A stretch of 64,000 bases of DNA from an uncultured Methanoregulaceae archaeon (GTDB taxonomy: Archaea > Halobacteriota > Methanomicrobia > Methanomicrobiales > Methanospirillaceae): NCBI GenBank assembly GCA_963705255.1, contig OY970061.1, positions 1,024,001 to 1,088,000 of the forward strand. The letters are read 5' to 3'. The stretch's first letter is position 1. Each line of letters opens with the position of its first letter. A model generated the notes under the pieces. It did not search any database. It was given only the letters and a program-made list of their open reading frames with translations, and was not told the origin of the DNA. The position numbers and the translations under genes are program-made. Below are positions 6,117 to 47,088 of the stretch, one piece after another.

Positions 6117-8233
6117 GTCAAACTATGGAGAATACCCCCTCTCTTCAGGATACGGATAAGACCGCGGACTGGAGCAGGCTGCTCAAAAGCAAATACAAAA
6201 AGGAGCTGGGGGAACTCTCCCGCGAATATCCCCACAAGCGGTCCCTTTACATTGATTACCGGGATGTTATCCGTGCCCATGGTGGTACAAAACTCGCGGA
6301 TGAACTCCTGGAGAATCCCGGAAAAGTCCTCGAGGATGTCTGGGATGCAATAAAAAACAGCCAGCTCGTCAGGACCAAAGACGGGAAAGAGCCAAAAGGT
6401 ATCAATATCCGTTTTACCAACCTCCCGAAAAAGACCGGCATCCGGCTTATCAGGTCAGATGATATCAACACCTTCGTTTCCGTTGAAGGCATCCTCCGCA
6501 AGACCACGGAGGTCCGGCCCCGCGTTGTCGAGGCAGTCTTCCGCTGTCCCGCCGGGCATTTCACGATAAAAAAGCAGAAATACGGGAAATTTATCGAACC
6601 GGACGGATGCGCCACAGACGGGTGCACGTTCAAGAAACTCGAGCTGGTGCCAAAACGGTCAAAATTCGTGGATTCCCAGAAGCTCCGGATCCAGGAGTCC
6701 CCGGAGGGGCTGCGCGGGGGGGAACAGCCCCAGACACTTGATATTGACGTGACCGACGACCTGTCCGGGAGGGTCTCACCGGGAGACCGGGTCATCATCA
6801 ACGGCATCCTCCGTTCCATGCAGAGGATTGTCAGAGGTGAGAAGAGCACGGTGTTCGACATCTTCCTCGAATGCAACTCCATCGAGATTGCAGAAAAAGA
6901 GTTTGAAGAGGTGGACATCGACGAGAAAGCCGAGGACGAGATCAGGGCCCTCAGCAAAGACCCGATGATCTACCGGATGATCACCCACTCGATTGCACCC
7001 ACGATCTATGGCAGTGAAGACGTGAAACAGGCCATCGCACTCCAGCTCTTTGGGGGTATCGCAAAGGAGATGCCCGACGGCACCCACCTCCGGGGGGATA
7101 TCCATGTCCTGCTCATCGGGGACCCGGGCATTGCAAAAAGCCAGTTGCTGAGGTACGTGGTAAAACTCTCCCCCCGCGCGATTTACACAAGCGGCCAGTC
7201 ATCCACTGCAGCCGGGCTCACGGCAACCGCGGTGAAGGATGAGTTCGGGGAAGGCCGCTGGACTCTCGAAGCGGGGGCACTCGTGCTCGCGGACATGGGC
7301 GTTGCAGCAGTCGACGAGATGGACAAGATGGAGAAAGGTGATCGGTCCGCACTCCACGAGGCCATGGAGCAGCAGTCCATCAGCGTGGCAAAGGCGGGTA
7401 TAACCGCAACACTCAAGTCGCGGTGTGCACTCCTCGGTGCGGCGAACCCTAAGTATGGCAGGTTCGATATGTTCGGGGACATCTCGGACCAGATCAATAT
7501 GCCCCCGTCACTGCTCTCCCGGTTCGACCTTATCTTCATCATGACAGACCAGCCCGAACAGAAACGGGACCTCGCGATCGCCGAACACATCCTCAAGGCT
7601 CACAGCACAGGCGAACTGATCGCCCAGCACAAGAAGACCCCCATCCCGGGGGTCACGGACGATTACATCCAGCAGCAGCTCAAACCCGTGATGCCGGACA
7701 TCGACCCTTCCCTCTTCCGCAAATACGTCGCGTACTCGAAACGTTCCTGCTACCCCATACTCTCACCGGAAGCACAAGAGGTCCTTGTCGCATACTATCT
7801 CAAACTGAGAGGGATTGCCGAGCCCAACAAACCCGTGCCGGTGACCGCCCGCCAGCTCGAGGCGCTCGTGCGGCTTGCGGAAGCAAGCGCGCGGATCCGC
7901 CTGTCAGATACAATCGAGCAGAGCGACGCAGAACGGGTGATCCATATCGTGGATGCCTGCCTGCGCCAGATCGCGTACGATGCGAAGACGGGGACGTTCG
8001 ATATCGACAAGGTCGTCACAGGCATCTCCAAGGAGAAACGTGACATTGTGCGGGTGATCAAGGACGCCATCCGCGACATTGGCGGAGAGGGAAGGCGCGC
8101 CGGGATTGACCAGGTCATCGACGCGGCCAGTTCCAAGGGGTTCGCGCGGGAAAAGGTCAAAGAAGGGATTGACATGCTTCTCCGGCATGGAGAGGCCATG
8201 GAACCGAAATCAGGGATAATCCAGTTGATATAA
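6113..8233 (+). CDS. mcm: MCM replicative helicase
   Basis: [37 protein letters not shown] motifs; no intein seen. Confidence 0.98.
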
Positions 8234-20435: not shown

Positions 20436-20625
20436 TTCCTATGGATGAGCGCTCGTAATAAAAGGATCTTAGTGCCCGTGATATTTATTTTCACGGATTG
20501 GTCTCTGCAGCCGCTATTGCCCGACAGCGGTACAGATACACGGAATGATTACCCGGAAGCCAGGTTCTGCCGGATTCAGCTGAAAAACCCAATTTTTTAT
20601 ATATTTTTGGCATAAACTTTCAGAT

Positions 20626-20856
20626 ATGCCTGCGGGACGACCAAAAAAACTGAATAACTATGAACAGATAAAAGTGAGAAAAATCCGGAAGATTTTATCT
20701 GAAAGTAATATCCGGAAATTCGACAAGGTCAATGATTCTGCGCTTCTGAAGACAATTTACATCGATCCTTCGGGGAAAATTTTTATATGCCATGATTTCT
20801 ACGAAAATTCGATGAAAGAGATTTCTGCAATAGTTTCGGGATTTATTGAAAAATAG
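20626..20856 (+). CDS. Small basic hypothetical protein (N-terminal GRPKK motif)
   Basis: 76-aa ORF downstream of TATA-like TTTTATATAT; MPAGRPKK start. Confidence 0.55.
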   Translation: MPAGRPKKLNNYEQIKVRKIRKILSESNIRKFDKVNDSALLKTIYIDPSGKIFICHDFYENSMKEISAIVSGFIEK

Positions 20857-21292
20857 GTGCCTATTTTTGACTCGGGAAACTTGTTGGAATATTCTCCTCC
20901 CCTTTCACGAATACCGGTTTCATATCGTCCATCGTCTCTCCAGAATGGCTGATATCGCGAGGCCGGGACAACGGTCGCACTGCCGGGTATAATCCCTCCG
21001 GTAAAGGATGCCTTTTTGTAAAGGAGATCCCGGACAGACTGATCGAACAGGTGGTATCGTTCCTGCACTACTGATTAAATGAGAATACAATCCTGCATTA
21101 TTTGCGAGGGATACCCGGGTCCACAGCCAGGATCTGGACACAAATCACTATACGAGACAGGGGGAGTTCATTCTGCCGAAGGATTAGGGTTACCCGGCTC
21201 CCTCTGGCACAGAAGTGCCACTGCTCCTTTACGGTGTAAATGCCAAAACAATTTCGGTATATTTATAATATATTGCGAATGAAACTGAATTC

Positions 21293-22152: not shown

Positions 22153-22722
22153 TTAACAGGGATTGCGGGGATCAGGGGCAGCACTCCGGGCGCAGAGCCG
22201 TGCCACGCGCAATGGTTCGGGGATCTTACCTTCAAGGGTAAAGTCGTTACACAATACTGCCGCATCCCGGTGTTCAATGCCCCATGAACGGATGAAGATG
22301 GTCTGGTGCGTCCGCAGCGCAACCGGTGAACGTTTCCCGAGCTCCATGTACCGGGTCACCCGTGTCAGGTCGTCAGGAAAATGACGGCGGATATCCCCGA
22401 GCAGTCCGTCGGAATCCTCGTAGGTGACACAAATAACCGGGAGGCCGGTCTTTTCATGAATCACAACAGGGCTGATAACGTTAAACCAGGCGATGACGCA
22501 ACCGGACAACATAACCACGTTAAGATCGCTCCGCTCAAGGTCCCGGATCATCGCAAGTATTGTGTCGGTAGCATCCACCCCGCCAACAGTCACTGTGCCA
22601 AACGAGAAGCCGTCAATGCGGAGATCTTTTCGCATCACCACGCCGGCAAGGGTGGACAAGGTTCGCCCGGAATAACTTTCTGCTATACCGAATGCCCGCA
22701 ACCCTTTTTTCGGGACATGCAT
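22153..22722 (-). CDS. DUF99 family protein (endonuclease V-like fold)
   Basis: GIAES, TVGGVDATD, GCVIAWFNVI, IPEPLRVA. Confidence 0.85.
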   Translation of the reverse strand: MHVPKKGLRAFGIAESYSGRTLSTLAGVVMRKDLRIDGFSFGTVTVGGVDATDTILAMIRDLERSDLNVVMLSGCVIAWFNVISPVVIHEKTGLPVICVTYEDSDGLLGDIRRHFPDDLTRVTRYMELGKRSPVALRTHQTIFIRSWGIEHRDAAVLCNDFTLEGKIPEPLRVARLCARSAAPDPRNPC

Positions 22723-22760
22723 AGAAGCACTTATGATAACCGATTAAAAATACTATACCA

Positions 22761-23684
22761 ATGAAATTCAACAAAGACGAGGTCTGCATCCTCATCCCCA
22801 CGCTCAATGAAGGTCCCACTATTGGAACTGTTGTCAGGGAATTCAAGGGACTCGGATACGACCATATTCTCGTAGTTGACGGGAAGAGTACCGATAACAC
22901 GGTAAAAATTGCCCGGGAAGCCGGGGCAAATGTCCGCACACAATCGGGCGTGGGCAAAGGCAATGCAATTATCGAGGCTTTTGAAGTCATCGAGCAGCCT
23001 TATATTCTCATGGTTGACGGTGACGGCACCTACTCGGCAAAAGATGCGGAAAAGATGCTGACCCCCCTGTTCCTGGGATTTGACCAGGTCATCGGGGATC
23101 GCCTCATCAACGCAGAAGAAGGCTCATTCTCTGGGCTCAACCTCTTTGGCAACCATATGCTGAACCTCCTTTTCAAAGTGGCCCACAGCAGGGACCTTCA
23201 TGATATCCTGTCGGGATACCGCGCCTTCACCAAGTTAGCGGTCCAGCAGATGCATCTGAAAGAGAAAGGGTTCGAGATCGAAACGGAAATCTCAGTTGAG
23301 TCCGTGCGGAACGGCCAGAGGATCATGGTCGTCCCCATCCGGTATTCCCGGCGCCCGGGGACGGCGACAAAACTTTCCCCGTTCCATGACGGTATCAAGA
23401 TTGTGAGCACGATATACCGGCTTGCACGGGTCAATAACCCCATGTTCTATTTTGGCATGATGGGCATTTTCACATCCCTCTTGGGCATCCTCACCGGGAT
23501 TTATGTCGTGCAGGAGTGGCTGCACGGGATCAACCACATTCCCCTGACGATCCTCACGGTGCTGCTTATCGTCGTTGGTATAGAAATTTTCATGTTCGGT
23601 ATGATCAGCGATATGCTTCTTGTCTTCCACCGGGAAATTATCCGTGAGATCCAGCTCCTCCAGTCCCCGAAGTCTCCGAAGTAA
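22761..23684 (+). CDS. aglJ: GT2 dolichol-phosphate glycosyltransferase, AglJ-like
   Basis: LIPTLNE, VVDGKSTD, DGDGTY, DILSGYRAF, GFEIETE, KLSPFHDG plus two C-terminal TMs. Confidence 0.82.
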   Translation: MKFNKDEVCILIPTLNEGPTIGTVVREFKGLGYDHILVVDGKSTDNTVKIAREAGANVRTQSGVGKGNAIIEAFEVIEQPYILMVDGDGTYSAKDAEKMLTPLFLGFDQVIGDRLINAEEGSFSGLNLFGNHMLNLLFKVAHSRDLHDILSGYRAFTKLAVQQMHLKEKGFEIETEISVESVRNGQRIMVVPIRYSRRPGTATKLSPFHDGIKIVSTIYRLARVNNPMFYFGMMGIFTSLLGILTGIYVVQEWLHGINHIPLTILTVLLIVVGIEIFMFGMISDMLLVFHREIIREIQLLQSPKSPK

Positions 23685-23707
23685 TCTTTTCTGCCTTGTC
23701 CTGAAAA

Positions 23708-23724
23708 TTTTTTTAATACCACAC
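23708..23724 (+). repeat. Left direct repeat of AT-rich cassette (TTTTTTTAATACCACAC)
   Basis: Identical 17-mer at 25017-25033; extends to 20/21 with the following xGTT. Confidence 0.85.
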
Positions 23725-23973
23725 GGTTGATTGTTAATTATTTAAAAAATAATTTGAATAAAGTTCAATTTCCCCATAGCAGCACTTTAACACCGATGGT
23801 GCGATGCTCTTTTCTGAAAAATCTTAAGTACTAGCGAAAGTGCAATCAATTTGACACTGTTTTTTTCATCCATATACAAATGTGAATAACGACATCACAC
23901 ATTCGATTAAACAATACGTTTATTATTCACCTAATTATAATTGCATTGAATAGCAGATTTGCTGGAATCCCCA

Positions 23974-24528
23974 ATGCCAGATGAAATTCCCCAAATAGAT
24001 GAAAAGTGCGACGAGGAAACTATAGCAAAAGATGAGCTTATTCTAAATTTGATTTCACGTCGTAATGATGCGGAATTTGAAAGAAATAACATTCTTGACA
24101 ACAAAGCAAGTGGCATTATTGGATTTGCTGGAATTATTATCGGTCTACTTGGAACTATAATTTCATTTTTATTAGATAAATTAACTCAGGGATCATCTCT
24201 TTTAATTTACTATAACAGTTATCGAGTAATTTTACTATTTGGAATTTTGTTTTTAGCAGCAGCAATAATCTTATGTTGCTATGCATATTCGATTAAAGTC
24301 TATACGATAGTTCCAAAAACAGATATGTTAATTGAAAATTATGCGAGGGATAAAAAAAAGAATAAATGCACTGTTATTCGTGTTGTTGGTCAAGAAATTT
24401 CTCTAGGAATCTTAAAAAATGCTGCAATTAATGATGAAAAAGCGAAATGTGTGAAGTATGGATTACGATTATATGCCTTTGGAATGGCATTAACCGTACT
24501 TTTTTTTATAGGTCTTTTAATGGTTTAA
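23974..24528 (+). CDS. 3-TM membrane protein resembling Pycsar/CBASS-type membrane effectors
   Basis: NILDNKASGIIGFAGIIIG (TM1), second TM, KNAAINDEKAKCV then TM3; AT-rich codon usage; family similarity judged by eye. Confidence 0.6.
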   Translation: MPDEIPQIDEKCDEETIAKDELILNLISRRNDAEFERNNILDNKASGIIGFAGIIIGLLGTIISFLLDKLTQGSSLLIYYNSYRVILLFGILFLAAAIILCCYAYSIKVYTIVPKTDMLIENYARDKKKNKCTVIRVVGQEISLGILKNAAINDEKAKCVKYGLRLYAFGMALTVLFFIGLLMV

Positions 24529-24540
24529 AGAGGTCAACTT

Positions 24541-24684
24541 ATGGAGAAAGAACAGGTTATTGGTAAAAAAGCACCGCCGGAAAAATCCAGTGATACCCAA
24601 ACAGTGTCATGGGGCACTAATGATCGAACATTAAGAGATGTTCAACTGAATAAACAACCTATTCCGAAAAGAGGGAAGAAGTAA
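24541..24684 (+). CDS. SWGT-motif peptide 1 (47 aa)
   Basis: MEKEQVIGKKAPPEKSSDTQTVSWGTNDRTLRDVQLNKQPIPKRGKK*; SD-like GAGGT upstream. Confidence 0.8.
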   Translation: MEKEQVIGKKAPPEKSSDTQTVSWGTNDRTLRDVQLNKQPIPKRGKK

Positions 24685-24816
24685 ATGGCGGAGAAAGAAA
24701 AAACCGATGAGAAGCCAAAAACAGAATCATGGGGTACTGAAGATCCTAAGATTAGAGAAGATCGAGCGTTATCAAGAAATGAGGAGCGCAAGAAGAAAGA
24801 ACTAAACGAAGAGTGA
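24685..24816 (+). CDS. SWGT-motif peptide 2 (43 aa)
   Basis: MAEKEKTDEKPKTESWGTEDPKIREDRALSRNEERKKKELNEE*; ATG directly follows the TAA of peptide 1. Confidence 0.8.
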   Translation: MAEKEKTDEKPKTESWGTEDPKIREDRALSRNEERKKKELNEE

Positions 24817-24820
24817 TCAA

Positions 24821-24955
24821 ATGACTGACGAACCTAAAAAAAGGCAGGAACCAACTAATACAACAAGCTGGGGAACAGCTGATCCAAGTTTGAGAGATGA
24901 AATCAAAGAAGCAAGAGTTCCTCGAAAACGTGATCCCAATGAAATAATCAAATAA
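24821..24955 (+). CDS. SWGT-motif peptide 3 (44 aa)
   Basis: MTDEPKKRQEPTNTTSWGTADPSLRDEIKEARVPRKRDPNEIIK*; SD-like GAGTGAT upstream; T-rich tract downstream. Confidence 0.8.
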   Translation: MTDEPKKRQEPTNTTSWGTADPSLRDEIKEARVPRKRDPNEIIK

Positions 24956-25016
24956 TCTTCTTTTACAATTTTTATAAATGTTTAATTATAGATATTTCAA
25001 AAATTGGTTTTCTATG

Positions 25017-25033
25017 TTTTTTTAATACCACAC
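25017..25033 (+). repeat. Right direct repeat of AT-rich cassette
   Basis: TTTTTTTAATACCACAC identical to 23708-23724; composition returns towards genome average after it. Confidence 0.85.
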
Positions 25034-25328
25034 TGTTACGGTAAATACCTTGAGAAATAACCGGAATGATGGTAGGGCAGTGCTGAACCCGCCTGTCTCG
25101 TATGGAGTGGGTGGGACTCAGGAATATAAAAAGCAACAGAGGTGAAAAAAGTCATCGGCTGCAGCATTTCTTGCACGCTTTTATGCATACCGGAGAGCGC
25201 CGGTTCAGGTGAGCAATGCGGGATAAAGCGAGGGGAATCGATGTTCGTTCGCAAAGAGAGAGAAGAACAATTTCCGGATTGGGATTTTTTCCGAAAACCT
25301 TTTTTGTGTATTTCCTAAAGAATTACTT

Positions 25329-25547
25329 ATGCAGTCGATAGATGGGTATATCGGGTATACGCGTCGGGAATATTGTAATGATGTGAAATGCCCGATACAA
25401 CTGCTCCTGAATAACGAAGTGGAAAAATCTCCCAAATATGAAGAAATCCGGGCGATTTGTGCTTCCAATTGTCTCCACAGCACCCATGAATTTCACCACT
25501 GGTTGACAGGGAAGGGATATCTCGTCGTCAGACCGGAGCACAAATAA
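25329..25547 (+). CDS. Small Cys/His-rich putative metal-binding protein
   Basis: YC-x4-CP, IC-x3-C, HEFHHWL; first gene of the lsrF-ADH unit. Confidence 0.7.
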   Translation: MQSIDGYIGYTRREYCNDVKCPIQLLLNNEVEKSPKYEEIRAICASNCLHSTHEFHHWLTGKGYLVVRPEHK

Positions 25548-25597
25548 CCCCAGCTTTTTATACATTTGTGTATCACTAATTCTCGTGAAGTGTCCCC

Positions 25598-26422
25598 ATG
25601 GTACATGCATATCTTGATATTGGAATCCAGAGCCGGATGAACCGGATAATCAATCCGAAAGATAACCGGGTAGTGATGCTTGCGATAGACCATCCCTATT
25701 TCCAGGGACCGACAACGGGCCTCCGCACCATGAGTAACACCATAACAACACTCCTCCCCTATTGCGATTGCCTGATGACGACACGCGGGGCAGTGCGGTC
25801 CAATATTGCGCCCGAAAATGTCGGGTCAAAACCCATCATGTTACGTGTTACCGGGGGAAACAGCGTCTTAAATGAAGAGTTAAGTGATGAAAAGCTCACG
25901 GTTACAATAAAAGAAGCCATCCGGATGGATGCGGCCGGTGTCGCGGTCAGTGTGTATATAGGCTCTGCCAATCAGCAACAGACTATTCTCAACCTCACCG
26001 ACATGATCAACCAGGCCGGCGAATACGGAATTCCCGTTCTGGCAGTAACAGCCGTGGGGAAAAACATGGCCCGGGATTTGCGCTATCTGGCGCTTGCATC
26101 CCGTATCTGCCAGGATGCCGGGGCCCGGATTATCAAGACTTATTATTGTGAGGAATTTTCCCGGCTTGTCGACTGGGTTTCCCCGACTGCTGTCGTGGTT
26201 GCAGGAGGGAAATACTCAAGTCCTCCTGACGCTCTCCAGATGGCCTACGACTCTGTCCAGGCCGGTGCTGTCGGAGTTGATTTCGGACGAAATATTTTCC
26301 AGGATGCCAATCCTGTCGGCATGATCAAAGCCATTGGTTCAATTGTCCATGGAAATCATACCGTAAAGGAAGCCCTGGATATTTACAATGCATGCTTACC
26401 CGGTGCATGCAAGCTCGACTGA
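25598..26422 (+). CDS. lsrF: LsrF-like thiolase / class I (DhnA-family) aldolase
   Basis: MLAIDHPYFQGPTTGL, LAVTAVGKNMARD, IIKTYYC, VVAGG, GVDFGRNIFQ. Confidence 0.82.
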   Translation: MVHAYLDIGIQSRMNRIINPKDNRVVMLAIDHPYFQGPTTGLRTMSNTITTLLPYCDCLMTTRGAVRSNIAPENVGSKPIMLRVTGGNSVLNEELSDEKLTVTIKEAIRMDAAGVAVSVYIGSANQQQTILNLTDMINQAGEYGIPVLAVTAVGKNMARDLRYLALASRICQDAGARIIKTYYCEEFSRLVDWVSPTAVVVAGGKYSSPPDALQMAYDSVQAGAVGVDFGRNIFQDANPVGMIKAIGSIVHGNHTVKEALDIYNACLPGACKLD

Positions 26423-26464
26423 TTTTTTATCTCTTAAACAGTTACTCTCCACTCGTGAACAGGA

Positions 26465-27517
26465 ATGAAAGCAGCGGTCTATTATAAGAACAGTGACATC
26501 CGCACCGAGGATGTTGAAGATCCGGCAGTCGGACCAGGAGAGATCAAGGTCAGGATCATGGCGTGCGGAGTGTGCGGGTCGGATGTCATGGAATGGTACC
26601 GGATTAAGCGTGCGGGAAGGCCCGGCGGGATCGGGGCCTTTGGGCATGAATGCACGGGAATCATTGCAGAAGCCGGTCCCGGCGCAGACAAAAAATGGAA
26701 GGTGGGAGACCGGGTCGTGGTCACCCATCATGTACCATGCACTACGTGTAATGCCTGTATACGCGGGCATACGACCGCATGTGACACGCTGCAAAAAACC
26801 AAATTCAAGAATGCGTACGGGGCGTTTGCGGAATATGTGGTGCTGCCCGCAATCAACGTGGACCGGGGTATATTACGCCTCCCCGAATCGGTTTCTTTTG
26901 ATGCGGGAACCTTTGTTGAACCCCTCGGGTGTGTAGTCCGCGGGCAGCAACTGGCTCCGACCTCGGATGGCCGGTCAGTCCTTATCATTGGCGCCGGGAT
27001 CACCGGACTGCTGCATGTCCAGGCAGCCCGGCTGAACGGTGCGGGATTTATTGCTGTTTCCAACCCGAGTCCTGATCGGTTGAAGGCCGCCCGGAAATTC
27101 GGTGCCGATGCAACCATTTCCGCTACGGAAGATGTTCCCGGAAGGTTTAAAGAATTAAATGGCGGCCTGGGCGCAGACACCGTCATCATGACCGCACCGG
27201 TTCCCGTCTGCGTGAAACAGTCGCTTGACGCAGTCGGACCCGGGGGTACGATCTTATTTTTTGCCCCCACAAATCCTGAGATCCAATCCGAAATCAATCT
27301 CTGGAACCTGTGGCAGAAAGAGATCACAATCACCCATTCCTATGCTGCCGATCTCCATAACCTGACAACTGCCCTGAAATGGATCCAGTATAACCGGATA
27401 AATGTAGCCGATATGATAACCCATGTTCTTCCCTTACAAGAAACGGCTGAAGGTTTTCTCCTGACTGCCCGGCACCGGGACGGTAGTTTAAAAGTTATCA
27501 TCCATCCACAGGAATAA
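26465..27517 (+). CDS. Zn-dependent medium-chain alcohol dehydrogenase
   Basis: CGVCGSD, GHE, CxxCxxC..C structural Zn, GAGITG. Confidence 0.92.
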   Translation: MKAAVYYKNSDIRTEDVEDPAVGPGEIKVRIMACGVCGSDVMEWYRIKRAGRPGGIGAFGHECTGIIAEAGPGADKKWKVGDRVVVTHHVPCTTCNACIRGHTTACDTLQKTKFKNAYGAFAEYVVLPAINVDRGILRLPESVSFDAGTFVEPLGCVVRGQQLAPTSDGRSVLIIGAGITGLLHVQAARLNGAGFIAVSNPSPDRLKAARKFGADATISATEDVPGRFKELNGGLGADTVIMTAPVPVCVKQSLDAVGPGGTILFFAPTNPEIQSEINLWNLWQKEITITHSYAADLHNLTTALKWIQYNRINVADMITHVLPLQETAEGFLLTARHRDGSLKVIIHPQE

Positions 27518-45490: not shown

Positions 45491-46106
45491 GAACACCTCG
45501 GAGTATATATTGTTCCTTCTCCCTTTTCACAATCCCCCGATGCTCGAATCGTTTGAGTATATCCGTAAGGGGGTCACCGGGAATGCCGGTGACCTCCTTC
45601 AGCTCCGCAAGGGTCAGGGAGTCGTGCGAGAGCGCTATGATTACAGTAATCTCTCGTTCGCTCCTGAATAAATCCTTATGGTTGAAGGCAATGTCACTGA
45701 TCTTTGTCTCGATATCATGGTTGATCTGTTCGAGGTTTGCAATGATCTGGTCGTGTGCCTTGATCATGCGCCCGAGCATGGCGACAGAGTTTTTCAGTCT
45801 CTCGTTCTTTTCGTCGTCCTCGCTTGAGACTGCGGAAACAATACGCACTTCTTTGAGGCTGACATTGATGAGGATGTCGTTTGCCAGGTAGTAGTATTTC
45901 CGGCGGCGTTCATCCATCTGGAAGGAGAGTATGGCTTCGCGCTCCATCATCTGGAGATGGTCGATCACCGCTTTTGGCGAGAGCATGAGGGTATCGGATA
46001 TCTCCGTAACAAAACAGGGCTTCTGCCGAAGCAGTTCAATGATCCGCCTCCGGTTGCGGTTCCCGAGTATGTCGAGAAGGCGGGCAACCTCGCCAGTATC
46101 GTTCAT
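45480..46106 (-). CDS. ArsR-family regulator (archaeal heat-shock regulator HSR1/Phr-like)
   Basis: LDILGNRNRRRIIELL..KPCFVTEIS...PKAVIDHL...RRKYY. Confidence 0.85.
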   Translation of the reverse strand: MNDTGEVARLLDILGNRNRRRIIELLRQKPCFVTEISDTLMLSPKAVIDHLQMMEREAILSFQMDERRRKYYYLANDILINVSLKEVRIVSAVSSEDDEKNERLKNSVAMLGRMIKAHDQIIANLEQINHDIETKISDIAFNHKDLFRSEREITVIIALSHDSLTLAELKEVTGIPGDPLTDILKRFEHRGIVKREKEQYILRGVHAE

Positions 46107-46233
46107 CTTTACGTAATGTTAGTATGAAAATATTTAGGGTTTGTTCTCATGGGTTCTGATAAGTTGACGGGACTTTTGAGAAATGCATCAGTGATGGTGC
46201 ATGACGAGACTTCTTAAAAAAATCTAATTTGAA

Positions 46234-47088
46234 CTATAATTCAGCATCGAGAAGAATTTTAATTGGAATCGGATATGAAACTGGTTGATTTGTTTCACAG
46301 GAGAACACTCGAAATTGTGTAGATATCTCGTTACAATGATTACCTACCTTTTCCCAATTGTATCTTTCAGGTAATCCAATTAAGGTTATTCTAGGCGGGA
46401 TTCTCATCCGACCCGGATGTATTAATTCGTAAACTCCGGGTTTTATTTGAAGCAATCCCCCTTGTAAGTTCGGGATTGTTTCAAACAGATTAATCGTTAG
46501 CAATTTTCCGAGTGAATCGCGCAGTTCACTATCACGACCAAGAGTACCAAGATTTTGAATTAGCTGCCTCACATGGCACAAATAATATATTATATAGTTA
46601 CGAGATTGCTCCGCCATTGTGCACGATTCGTTTGTGAATATGGGGATGTTATTTAGCGAGGCTGACGAGGCAAGTCCCATGATCGTAGGGTGTCCCGTAA
46701 TATCACTAATTAATTGAATAATTGAATTTGGAACGTCGTTTTCATCCCAAGTTCTCCAAACAAAATCACGCCAATATTCTGGAACTTCTGTATTATCTAA
46801 TCTCACCACAAGTAATTTGAAACTATTATCATGTTCCTTAATCCCTTTTGCAATTTCCATTTCAAATTGAACACATCTACTTCTGCGTGCATTGAGTGAA
46901 TAAAGTAAAATATATCCTTTACTTTGTCTTAATCCCGATTCCAATTCACCCTTTAAATGATCGCCACCCGATAATAGACTTTCATCATACCATACAAAAA
47001 GACCGTTAAAAATTGCATTGTGGTAAATAAACCTTGCAAGTTCCTTGTTTGCTCCATTGTGACTTAGAAAAAAATCAAACTCGGCCAT
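46234..47088 (-). CDS. TIR-domain protein (AT-rich, stand-alone)
   Basis: FDFFLSH, VWYDE..L..GD, SRCVQFEMEIA with candidate catalytic Glu. Confidence 0.85.
   Translation of the reverse strand: MAEFDFFLSHNGANKELARFIYHNAIFNGLFVWYDESLLSGGDHLKGELESGLRQSKGYILLYSLNARRSRCVQFEMEIAKGIKEHDNSFKLLVVRLDNTEVPEYWRDFVWRTWDENDVPNSIIQLISDITGHPTIMGLASSASLNNIPIFTNESCTMAEQSRNYIIYYLCHVRQLIQNLGTLGRDSELRDSLGKLLTINLFETIPNLQGGLLQIKPGVYELIHPGRMRIPPRITLIGLPERYNWEKVGNHCNEISTQFRVFSCETNQPVSYPIPIKILLDAEL

Follow-up and report, generated by a model that had tools for sequence, protein, structure and literature searches.

A small acquired islet of an uncultured Methanoregulaceae archaeon strictly pairs W-motif micro-proteins with a membrane protein that may be remotely related to PycTM

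The DNA analyzed here is a window of 64,000 nt from an uncultured Methanoregulaceae archaeon (contig OY970061.1 of assembly GCA_963705255.1, positions 1,024,001 to 1,088,000), whose genome is a single 2.6-Mb contig with an estimated completeness of 89.5%. Between a GT2 glycosyltransferase gene and a DeoC-type aldolase gene, the window contains a 1309-bp insert (positions 23708-25016) that holds only four open reading frames (ORFs), all on the plus strand: one encodes a predicted three-helix membrane protein, and the other three encode micro-proteins of fewer than 50 residues. The original prediction, made from the sequence of the window, had described a 1.3-kb AT-rich cassette composed of these same ORFs, and every element of that description was found where it had been placed, including the membrane-protein gene and all three small ORFs (Table 1). 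The block is indeed AT-rich, with a GC content of 0.29-0.40 at 23600-25100 compared with 0.51-0.57 in the left flank and 0.49-0.59 in the right flank.

For the product of the first gene, the AlphaFold2 model (mean predicted local distance difference test score, pLDDT, 71.8) places helices at residues 14-70, 77-106, 116-124 and 131-183, and a count of three transmembrane spans is predicted from this model together with the sequence. By the positive-inside rule, the N-terminal helix and a lysine-rich helical insert preceding the last span would face the cytoplasm. No entry of Pfam, NCBIfam or PHROGs matched either the membrane protein or the micro-proteins below E=0.05; a Pfam DUF7723 match to the membrane protein (E=0.078) and a PHROGs excisionase match to micro-protein 2 (E=0.086) were both taken as chance. 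In a Foldseek comparison, which the original prediction had suggested, the PDB returned only generic long-helix proteins, with a best E-value of 0.21. The family is large: among 1.84 billion representatives, a profile built from 11 relatives (A4) matched 1739, 364 and 51 clusters at E-value cut-offs of 1e-3, 1e-10 and 1e-30, respectively. A word-indexed protein search yielded seven relatives at 58-87% identity, and pattern scans of genome contigs and viral contigs (A1) gave no confirmed relative.

Several members of this family are elaborated. The relatives P0098, P0117, P0130, P0138 and P0142 carry fused domains: at the C-terminus a domain like that of zinc metallopeptidases (matches to Pfam M10 and related families at E=4e-6 to 2e-3), or at the N-terminus a transglutaminase core (E=4e-9). 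At locus L001 (5485-6522), the membrane-protein frame continues for about 170 codons upstream through extra hydrophobic segments, and P0009 (348 residues) has the same form. In genome G238, the AT-rich island that holds the cassette also encodes, immediately upstream, a separate multi-span protein of 394 residues that belongs to no Pfam family (L083 8948-10129).

The micro-protein genes follow the membrane-protein gene at once, the intergenic gaps along the four-gene cassette being 12, 0 and 4 nt. As originally proposed, all three products share a motif, written here as W-x3-D-x2-L-R, and it is conserved across loci: in an alignment of 21 peptides from 8 loci, the tryptophan and the aspartate are invariant and the leucine is nearly so, with one clade carrying one extra residue between W and D. 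Across the 4.43 million residues of all stop-to-stop frames of the genome, the motif in a strict form turns up 27 times, and a hidden Markov model (HMM) of the peptides matches just the three cassette ORFs among its 67,144 frames, the next best hit having an E-value of about 1. A Shine-Dalgarno-like 4-mer is present at positions -18 to -4 of 16 of the 23 peptide starts, compared with 14.6% of positions in the same cassettes. The peptides are 39-54 residues long and 40-60% charged, 19 of 21 lack cysteine, and none possesses a hydrophobic stretch. A structural model of micro-protein 3 (pLDDT 69) predicts coil for residues 1-21 and a helix for residues 22-32, which starts right after the invariant aspartate.

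At the DNA level, the three small ORFs make up a family of 45-nt repeats, at 71% and 60% to the reference copy. Across loci, peptides from the same position are closest to each other (49%, 46%, 44%, 57%, 56% and 60%): micro-protein 2 is closest to the second peptides of L001 (49%) and L002 (46%), micro-protein 3 to the last peptide of L001 (44%), and L039_2 to L040_2 (60%). Because these same-position peptides outscore their own neighbours, the paralogues must be old and have been maintained separately. A reading of the three ORFs as a single gene read through its stop codons, as the common frame of the first two might suggest, was rejected, since the third ORF and the ORFs of L001 lie in other frames and every ORF has a start signal of its own. 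A few of the peptides already stand in public records as ‘hypothetical protein’ (Methanomicrobium sp. W14, Methanoregula sp. and Methanolacinia paynteri), which points to a methanogen of the Methanomicrobiales type as host. The peptides are not covered by any model of PADLOC 2.0.0, an ESM Atlas search with micro-protein 3 gave a best score of 0.79, which is below the useful range, and larger proteins that contain the motif were sought without a match at E≤1, a negative that is itself weak evidence.

A possibly similar motif was seen at L004 and L005, two records with the same ORFs over the stretch concerned. There, a 132-residue protein (6564-6962, minus strand) is convergent to a membrane-protein relative of 26% identity; its charged N-terminal tail with W-x3-D-P-x-L-R is followed by two membrane spans, between which lies a proline-rich loop. 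At E=0.13 among 82 loci, the protein scores only marginally against the peptide HMM and is a lead rather than evidence.

The genes of the cassette are real and coupled, and their pairing is strict. Strong membrane-protein homologues were found at ten loci, namely in 8 genomes matching A4 at E≤1e-30 and at 2 metagenome loci with 61% and 58% identity. Every one of these loci has one to four motif peptides downstream on the same strand, and in nine of them the peptides directly abut the membrane-protein gene. The reverse search gave the same picture. When a peptide profile (A5) was run against all six frames of 401 genomes of the order, it matched six genomes, identical to the six with strong membrane-protein matches; the matches always lay beside the membrane-protein gene, and the other 395 genomes gave none. 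Homologues that lack downstream motif peptides, which the original prediction had named among the observations that would refute it, were thus not encountered among the ten strong homologues, and the linkage holds in both directions.

Furthermore, the pairing persists down to 28-35% identity of the membrane protein and with different flanking genes, and variants of the peptide motif track the membrane-protein clades. At E≤1, the peptide HMM matched none of 33 weaker loci (A4 E-values of 1.6e-27 to 7.5e-4), several of which are cut near the gene. Judged from these comparisons, the membrane protein and the peptides are in all likelihood an obligate pair that has been passed on, vertically and horizontally, as a unit among methanogen-type archaea. 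When the membrane protein (A4) was co-folded with a peptide (A5), the score was 0.01 and the mark 0.32, which speaks neither for nor against binding.

The module is rare: it was absent from 36 congeners in one sample, present in one other genome among 102 congeners, and present in 6 of 401 genomes of the order. Every cassette is an AT-rich stretch, with a GC content of 0.25-0.40 between flanks of GC 0.5-0.7, and the adjoining genes vary among loci. More distant relatives of the membrane protein, which occur without peptides, adjoin genes of the TIR_2, HicA/HicB and ParE families. This conflict-type context was counted in favour of an effector function, which it may reflect.

In the window, the block is a small islet that was acquired horizontally. 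A segment of 3.66 kb spanning it was compared with 41 genomes of the genus, of which 38 matched. In the two nearest genomes, G025 and G061, the left and right flanks abut with an overlap of 45-56 nt, forming an empty site; flank identity is 93-94% in G025, and 80% on the left and 93% on the right in G061. Window positions 23753-25016 are absent from both, and the alignment shows a single repeat copy at each empty site. The block is therefore a 1309-bp insertion. A low-depth metagenome contig of a related strain joins position 23729 to 25038, while other contigs from the same study keep the cassette unchanged, a weak hint that filled and empty forms co-exist. Four DNA metagenome runs, all from a single study, are listed as containing the cassette; no RNA run is listed.

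The insertion is bounded by a direct repeat of 21 nt, with 20 of 21 positions identical and a spacing of 1309 nt, and in the alignment with the empty sites the similarity extends imperfectly over about 60 nt. While the original prediction was correct in describing the cassette as bounded by direct repeats, the repeat is not a feature of the module, as a search around three other cassettes (L001, L002 and L009) revealed none, and a role for it as part of the module was dropped on that account. Since the insert also contains no recombinase gene, the repeat is better understood as a record of how the window copy arrived. It stems from insertion into a resident intergenic motif.

The original prediction had also noted a resemblance of the membrane protein to PycTM, or DUF5706-like, effectors. 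PycTM is described as the membrane-disrupting effector of Pycsar (PMC11224242). The PADLOC models of PycTM match the window protein over profile positions 23-149 of 160, at E=4e-5 (PDLC02364), E=2e-4 (PDLC02363) and E=0.011 (PDLC02365), whereas true archaeal PycTM proteins score E=1e-27 to 1e-41 in PADLOC. When 108 family representatives, chosen from 150 listed ones, were examined in the same manner, 70 matched PDLC02364 and 48 matched PDLC02363. An hhalign comparison of their 108-row alignment (A6) with seven true archaeal PycTM proteins (A7) returned a probability of 54% and E=1.3e-4 over 155 columns, and pairs both the D-x-K-A stretch before the first span (LD.KA) and the K-A stretch before the last span (N..N..KA). 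The two proteins are alike in size and would share one layout, in which a cytoplasmic N-terminal helix ending in D-x-K-A is followed by the first and second spans, a helical insert, a second K-A stretch and the last span.

The resemblance does not extend to membership of the curated family. Pfam PF18967 gave no match to the membrane protein at E≤10, and a whole-genome scan with PF18967.5 also missed the gene; among the 108 relatives, one matched (E≤0.01). A precomputed PF18967.6 label on seven of eight close homologues could not be reproduced here. True PF18967 genes were found in 7 of 301 genomes of the phylum, and lie at separate loci from the A4 matches where both occur. Together, the PADLOC and hhalign comparisons lend weak but consistent statistical backing to the view that the membrane protein is a remote relative of PycTM, probably a sister family of the same architecture outside PF18967 as curated. 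A few relatives also match the SLATT/2TM effectors of CBASS, DRT and Thoeris weakly (best E 8e-4), with one or two relatives for each of four PADLOC ‘Effector 2TM’ models, two for the main RTasSLATT model and one for the second. True PycTM proteins match the same 2TM models strongly, but the window protein itself has no such match, and the partner enzymes of those systems are absent here.

The module differs from Pycsar in its partner, which is an array of micro-proteins rather than an enzyme. Canonical archaeal PycTM genes adjoin a PycC gene at six of seven loci (PADLOC PycC E=1e-51 to 1e-98), the seventh locus ending at the contig end, whereas none lies beside the window protein. A scan of the window genome with PF00211 gave no matches, which is insufficient by itself, because four of those six archaeal PycC proteins escape PF00211 at E≤0.001. 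A profile of seven archaeal PycC proteins (A8) found no match at E≤1 in the window genome and none at E≤0.01 in the cassette genomes G238, G054 and G117. In the control genome G616 it detected two genes, one of which was outside the profile. The statement of the original prediction that the cassette has no cyclase is confirmed, and these searches detected none elsewhere in the genome.

Two variations were seen among the canonical archaeal Pycsar loci (L076-L082) and the control: L079 has PycC on both sides of PycTM, and two PycC genes stand side by side at G616:C1:1571362-1572908.

These observations raise the possibility that the cassette is a toxin-antitoxin or abortive-infection module built around a membrane effector but lacking a cyclase, in which the micro-proteins act as cytoplasmic regulators; this is the reading that we favour, and we put its probability at roughly 0.4. 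Membrane damage, binding between peptide and effector, and the direction of control would all have to be supposed. In such a scheme, the PycTM-like protein would be a membrane-perturbing effector as in Pycsar, acting without a cyclic-nucleotide signal. Lacking an export signal, the peptides should encounter the membrane protein on its cytoplasmic face, where they could occupy its cytoplasmic helices, namely the N-terminal helix and the helix before the last span. Being predicted as mostly disordered, and probably short-lived, the micro-proteins might serve as labile inhibitors: ongoing synthesis would keep the effector closed, and once synthesis stops, through virus-induced shut-off or loss of the islet, the effector would open and growth would stop.

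Membrane-toxin toxin-antitoxin and abortive-infection modules resemble the cassette in being compact, self-contained operons in which a small membrane protein is co-translated with small partners. They are likewise mobile and sporadic, and the distant relatives found here stand among HicAB, ParE and TIR genes. The tight linkage and joint inheritance expected of toxin and antitoxin were found here in the intergenic spacing, in 10 of 10 loci and in 6 of 401 genomes. Similarly to Pycsar, the window module sits in mobile and patchy islets. Conversely, such modules have a single antitoxin, whereas the window type has several different protein partners, two to four in number; these are encoded after the putative toxin, and nothing in the cassette matches a toxin-antitoxin family in Pfam, NCBIfam or PADLOC.

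A number of points weigh against the proposed effector module. It would be unusual for a single toxin to have three or four different antitoxins, or for an antitoxin gene to follow that of its toxin. The defence-type neighbours belong to distant relatives without peptides, and the peptidase-like and transglutaminase-core fusions suit a plain membrane anchor equally well as an effector. The hhalign probability for the likeness to PycTM is just 54%, and membership of Pfam PF18967 fails. Finally, the statistics of the pairing are in part circular, as A5 was built from the loci that it recovers and may miss divergent orphan peptides, and several A4 E-values are partly self-matches (L001, L009, L003 and L005 are rows of A4).

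The micro-proteins could also stand in the opposite relation to the membrane protein, as sensors or activators that switch the effector on once they have bound part of a virus or have been cleaved by its protease. The several old and distinct paralogues at each locus suit diversified recognition better than plain neutralization, and the pairing and the missing cyclase are as compatible with this arrangement as with inhibition. Yet nothing in the present data points to a viral ligand, and a single short conserved motif in an otherwise variable sequence is more suggestive of a common docking site than of varied recognition surfaces. We regard a sensor role, in which several divergent peptides would widen the detectable range, as rather improbable. 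An explanation outside conflict altogether, in which the genes form a housekeeping or stress-related membrane complex carried on mobile DNA, such as a small channel or a membrane-remodelling protein with accessory micro-protein subunits, is unlikely. It draws on the absence of significant defence-model matches for the peptides and the weak ones for the membrane protein, on the relatives fused to peptidase-like domains, and on the generic folds returned by Foldseek. What counts against it is the sparse and patchy distribution (6 of 401 genomes of the order and 0 of 36 congeners), always in AT-rich foreign islets, and the strain-specific insertion with empty sites in the nearest relatives, which are traits of accessory, selfish or defence genes.

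Tandem paralogous short ORFs beside a membrane protein are also a layout of bacteriocin loci, and the original prediction had entertained precursors processed or exported by the membrane protein. The small ORFs would then encode secreted or modified peptides (bacteriocins, pheromones, or ribosomally synthesized and post-translationally modified peptides, RiPPs), with the membrane protein as exporter, processing factor or immunity factor, and the peptidase-like fusions among its relatives could be read in that sense. However, the composition of the peptides, highly charged, mostly free of cysteine and lacking a hydrophobic or signal-like stretch, is unlike the Cys/Ser/Thr-rich or hydrophobic cores of RiPP and bacteriocin clusters, and the 1309-bp insert contains no modifying enzyme, ATP-binding cassette (ABC) exporter or peptidase. 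In addition, a similar motif stands on the probably cytoplasmic tail of the two-span protein of L004/L005, albeit with the marginal score given above. This explanation is therefore very improbable. A last alternative, in which the membrane protein is the sole gene and the small ORFs are accidental frames or leftovers of a decayed repeat protein, has nothing in its favour but their small size and can practically be dismissed: the small ORFs are conserved over ten loci, W and D being invariant, in an AT-rich setting that makes stop codons frequent, their Shine-Dalgarno-like signals are enriched, neighbouring ORFs lie in different frames and so cannot be one broken gene, and some are already annotated publicly.

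In the literature searched, the supplements of which were not covered, no paper was found that describes the pairing of a PycTM-like protein with micro-proteins, and the peptides are without named relatives in the Pfam, NCBIfam, PHROGs and PADLOC searches. It is conceivable, if doubtful, that the effector module inferred here represents a new class of archaeal conflict system, in which an array of short-lived micro-proteins replaces the cyclic-nucleotide messenger of Pycsar. With the same reserve, a PycTM-type effector might in that case be held in check by, or triggered via, two to four W-motif peptides. A relative of a phage-defence effector would then have exchanged its signalling enzyme for a conserved set of proteins of 40-50 residues with one sharp motif, and the cell's own ongoing translation would be the monitored signal. 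If the peptides do control the effector, this would be a new mode of gating for a membrane effector, and the module, compact at four genes and about 1 kb, would lend itself readily to testing. Whatever the role, the two-way linkage defines a new family of micro-proteins with an apparently obligate membrane partner. Knowledge of defence and addiction systems in methanogens is sparse, and annotation routinely misses micro-proteins.

Table 1. Features of the insert and its junctions in the window, copies of the intergenic motif elsewhere, and peptide arrays at the ten paired loci.
Feature	Position	Strand	Description
Left junction	23708-23770	+	21-nt repeat core at 23708-23728, then AT-rich version of the ~55-nt motif; distal half arrived with the insert
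tRNA-Glu(CUC)-like fragment	23771-23821	+	last 15 nt of the tRNA and 36 nt of downstream flank; no tRNA gene
Membrane-protein gene	23974-24528	+	184 residues from ATG, predicted three-helix; alternative TTG at 23959 gives 189 residues
Micro-protein 1	24541-24684	+	47 residues, W-x3-D-x2-L-R; GAGG 8-12 nt before the start
Micro-protein 2	24685-24816	+	43 residues; ATG directly after the TAA of micro-protein 1, in frame
Micro-protein 3	24821-24955	+	44 residues; frame differs from micro-proteins 1 and 2
T-rich insert tail	24956-25016	+	possible archaeal oligo-T terminator, judged from sequence only
Right junction	25017-25078	+	resident motif copy, repeat core at 25017-25037, continuous with the empty-site sequence
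Copies of the ~55-nt motif	window 23708-23770 and 25017-25078; L028 2442-2485; L031 2392-2431; L034 2284-2311; L035 2559-2585		
Peptide array, window			3 peptides
Peptide array, L001			3 peptides
Peptide array, L002			4 peptides
Peptide array, L009 / G054			3 peptides
Peptide array, L037 / G238			2 clear peptides and one degenerate
Peptide array, L038 / G117			4 peptides
Peptide array, L039 / G077			2 peptides
Peptide array, L040 / G137			2 peptides
Peptide array, L049 / G643			2 peptides
Peptide array, L050 / G672			1 peptide, about 530 nt downstream

The resident motif into which the cassette was inserted is about 55 nt long, consists of a T-run, a conserved core and an A-rich part, and recurs at several intergenic places across genomes of the genus. 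It may act as a promoter or terminator, or be a hot spot of recombination. In the window, the left-hand copy is a hybrid: its core equals that of the resident copy and its distal half resembles motif copies elsewhere in the genus, as would be expected if the incoming element had recombined with the resident motif inside the shared core. The sequence that follows is 90% identical over 51 nt to L029 2342-2392 of a congener, where the tRNA-Glu gene lies at 2281-2356, and there is a 28-nt match to the tRNA-Glu locus of the window genome itself, 83 kb away. ARAGORN found no tRNA gene in the window, and Rfam gave no match on 22500-26500. The att-like repeats and the tRNA-Glu 3' fragment would suit an integrase-borne integrative element; a recombinase gene was found neither in the insert nor in the 19 kb around the G238 copy, and the L001, L002 and L009 cassettes showed no repeats at their flanks.

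A comparable stretch was observed at L028 2442-2600 (G023:C445), where the same motif stands downstream of a family-B DNA polymerase gene and is followed by a fragment resembling the 3' end of tRNA-Glu, again without a tRNA gene, and then by an opposite-strand ORF of 221 residues of unassigned function. The stretch may represent a further such islet, with a different cargo.

Elsewhere in the window, a short intergenic stretch of low GC content (0.35) lies at 20600-20900. A second AT-rich patch (GC 0.386, 46001-47000) holds the gene for a TIR-domain protein of 284 residues (46234-47088, minus strand; Pfam TIR_2, E=8e-12), which is probably another acquired defence gene.

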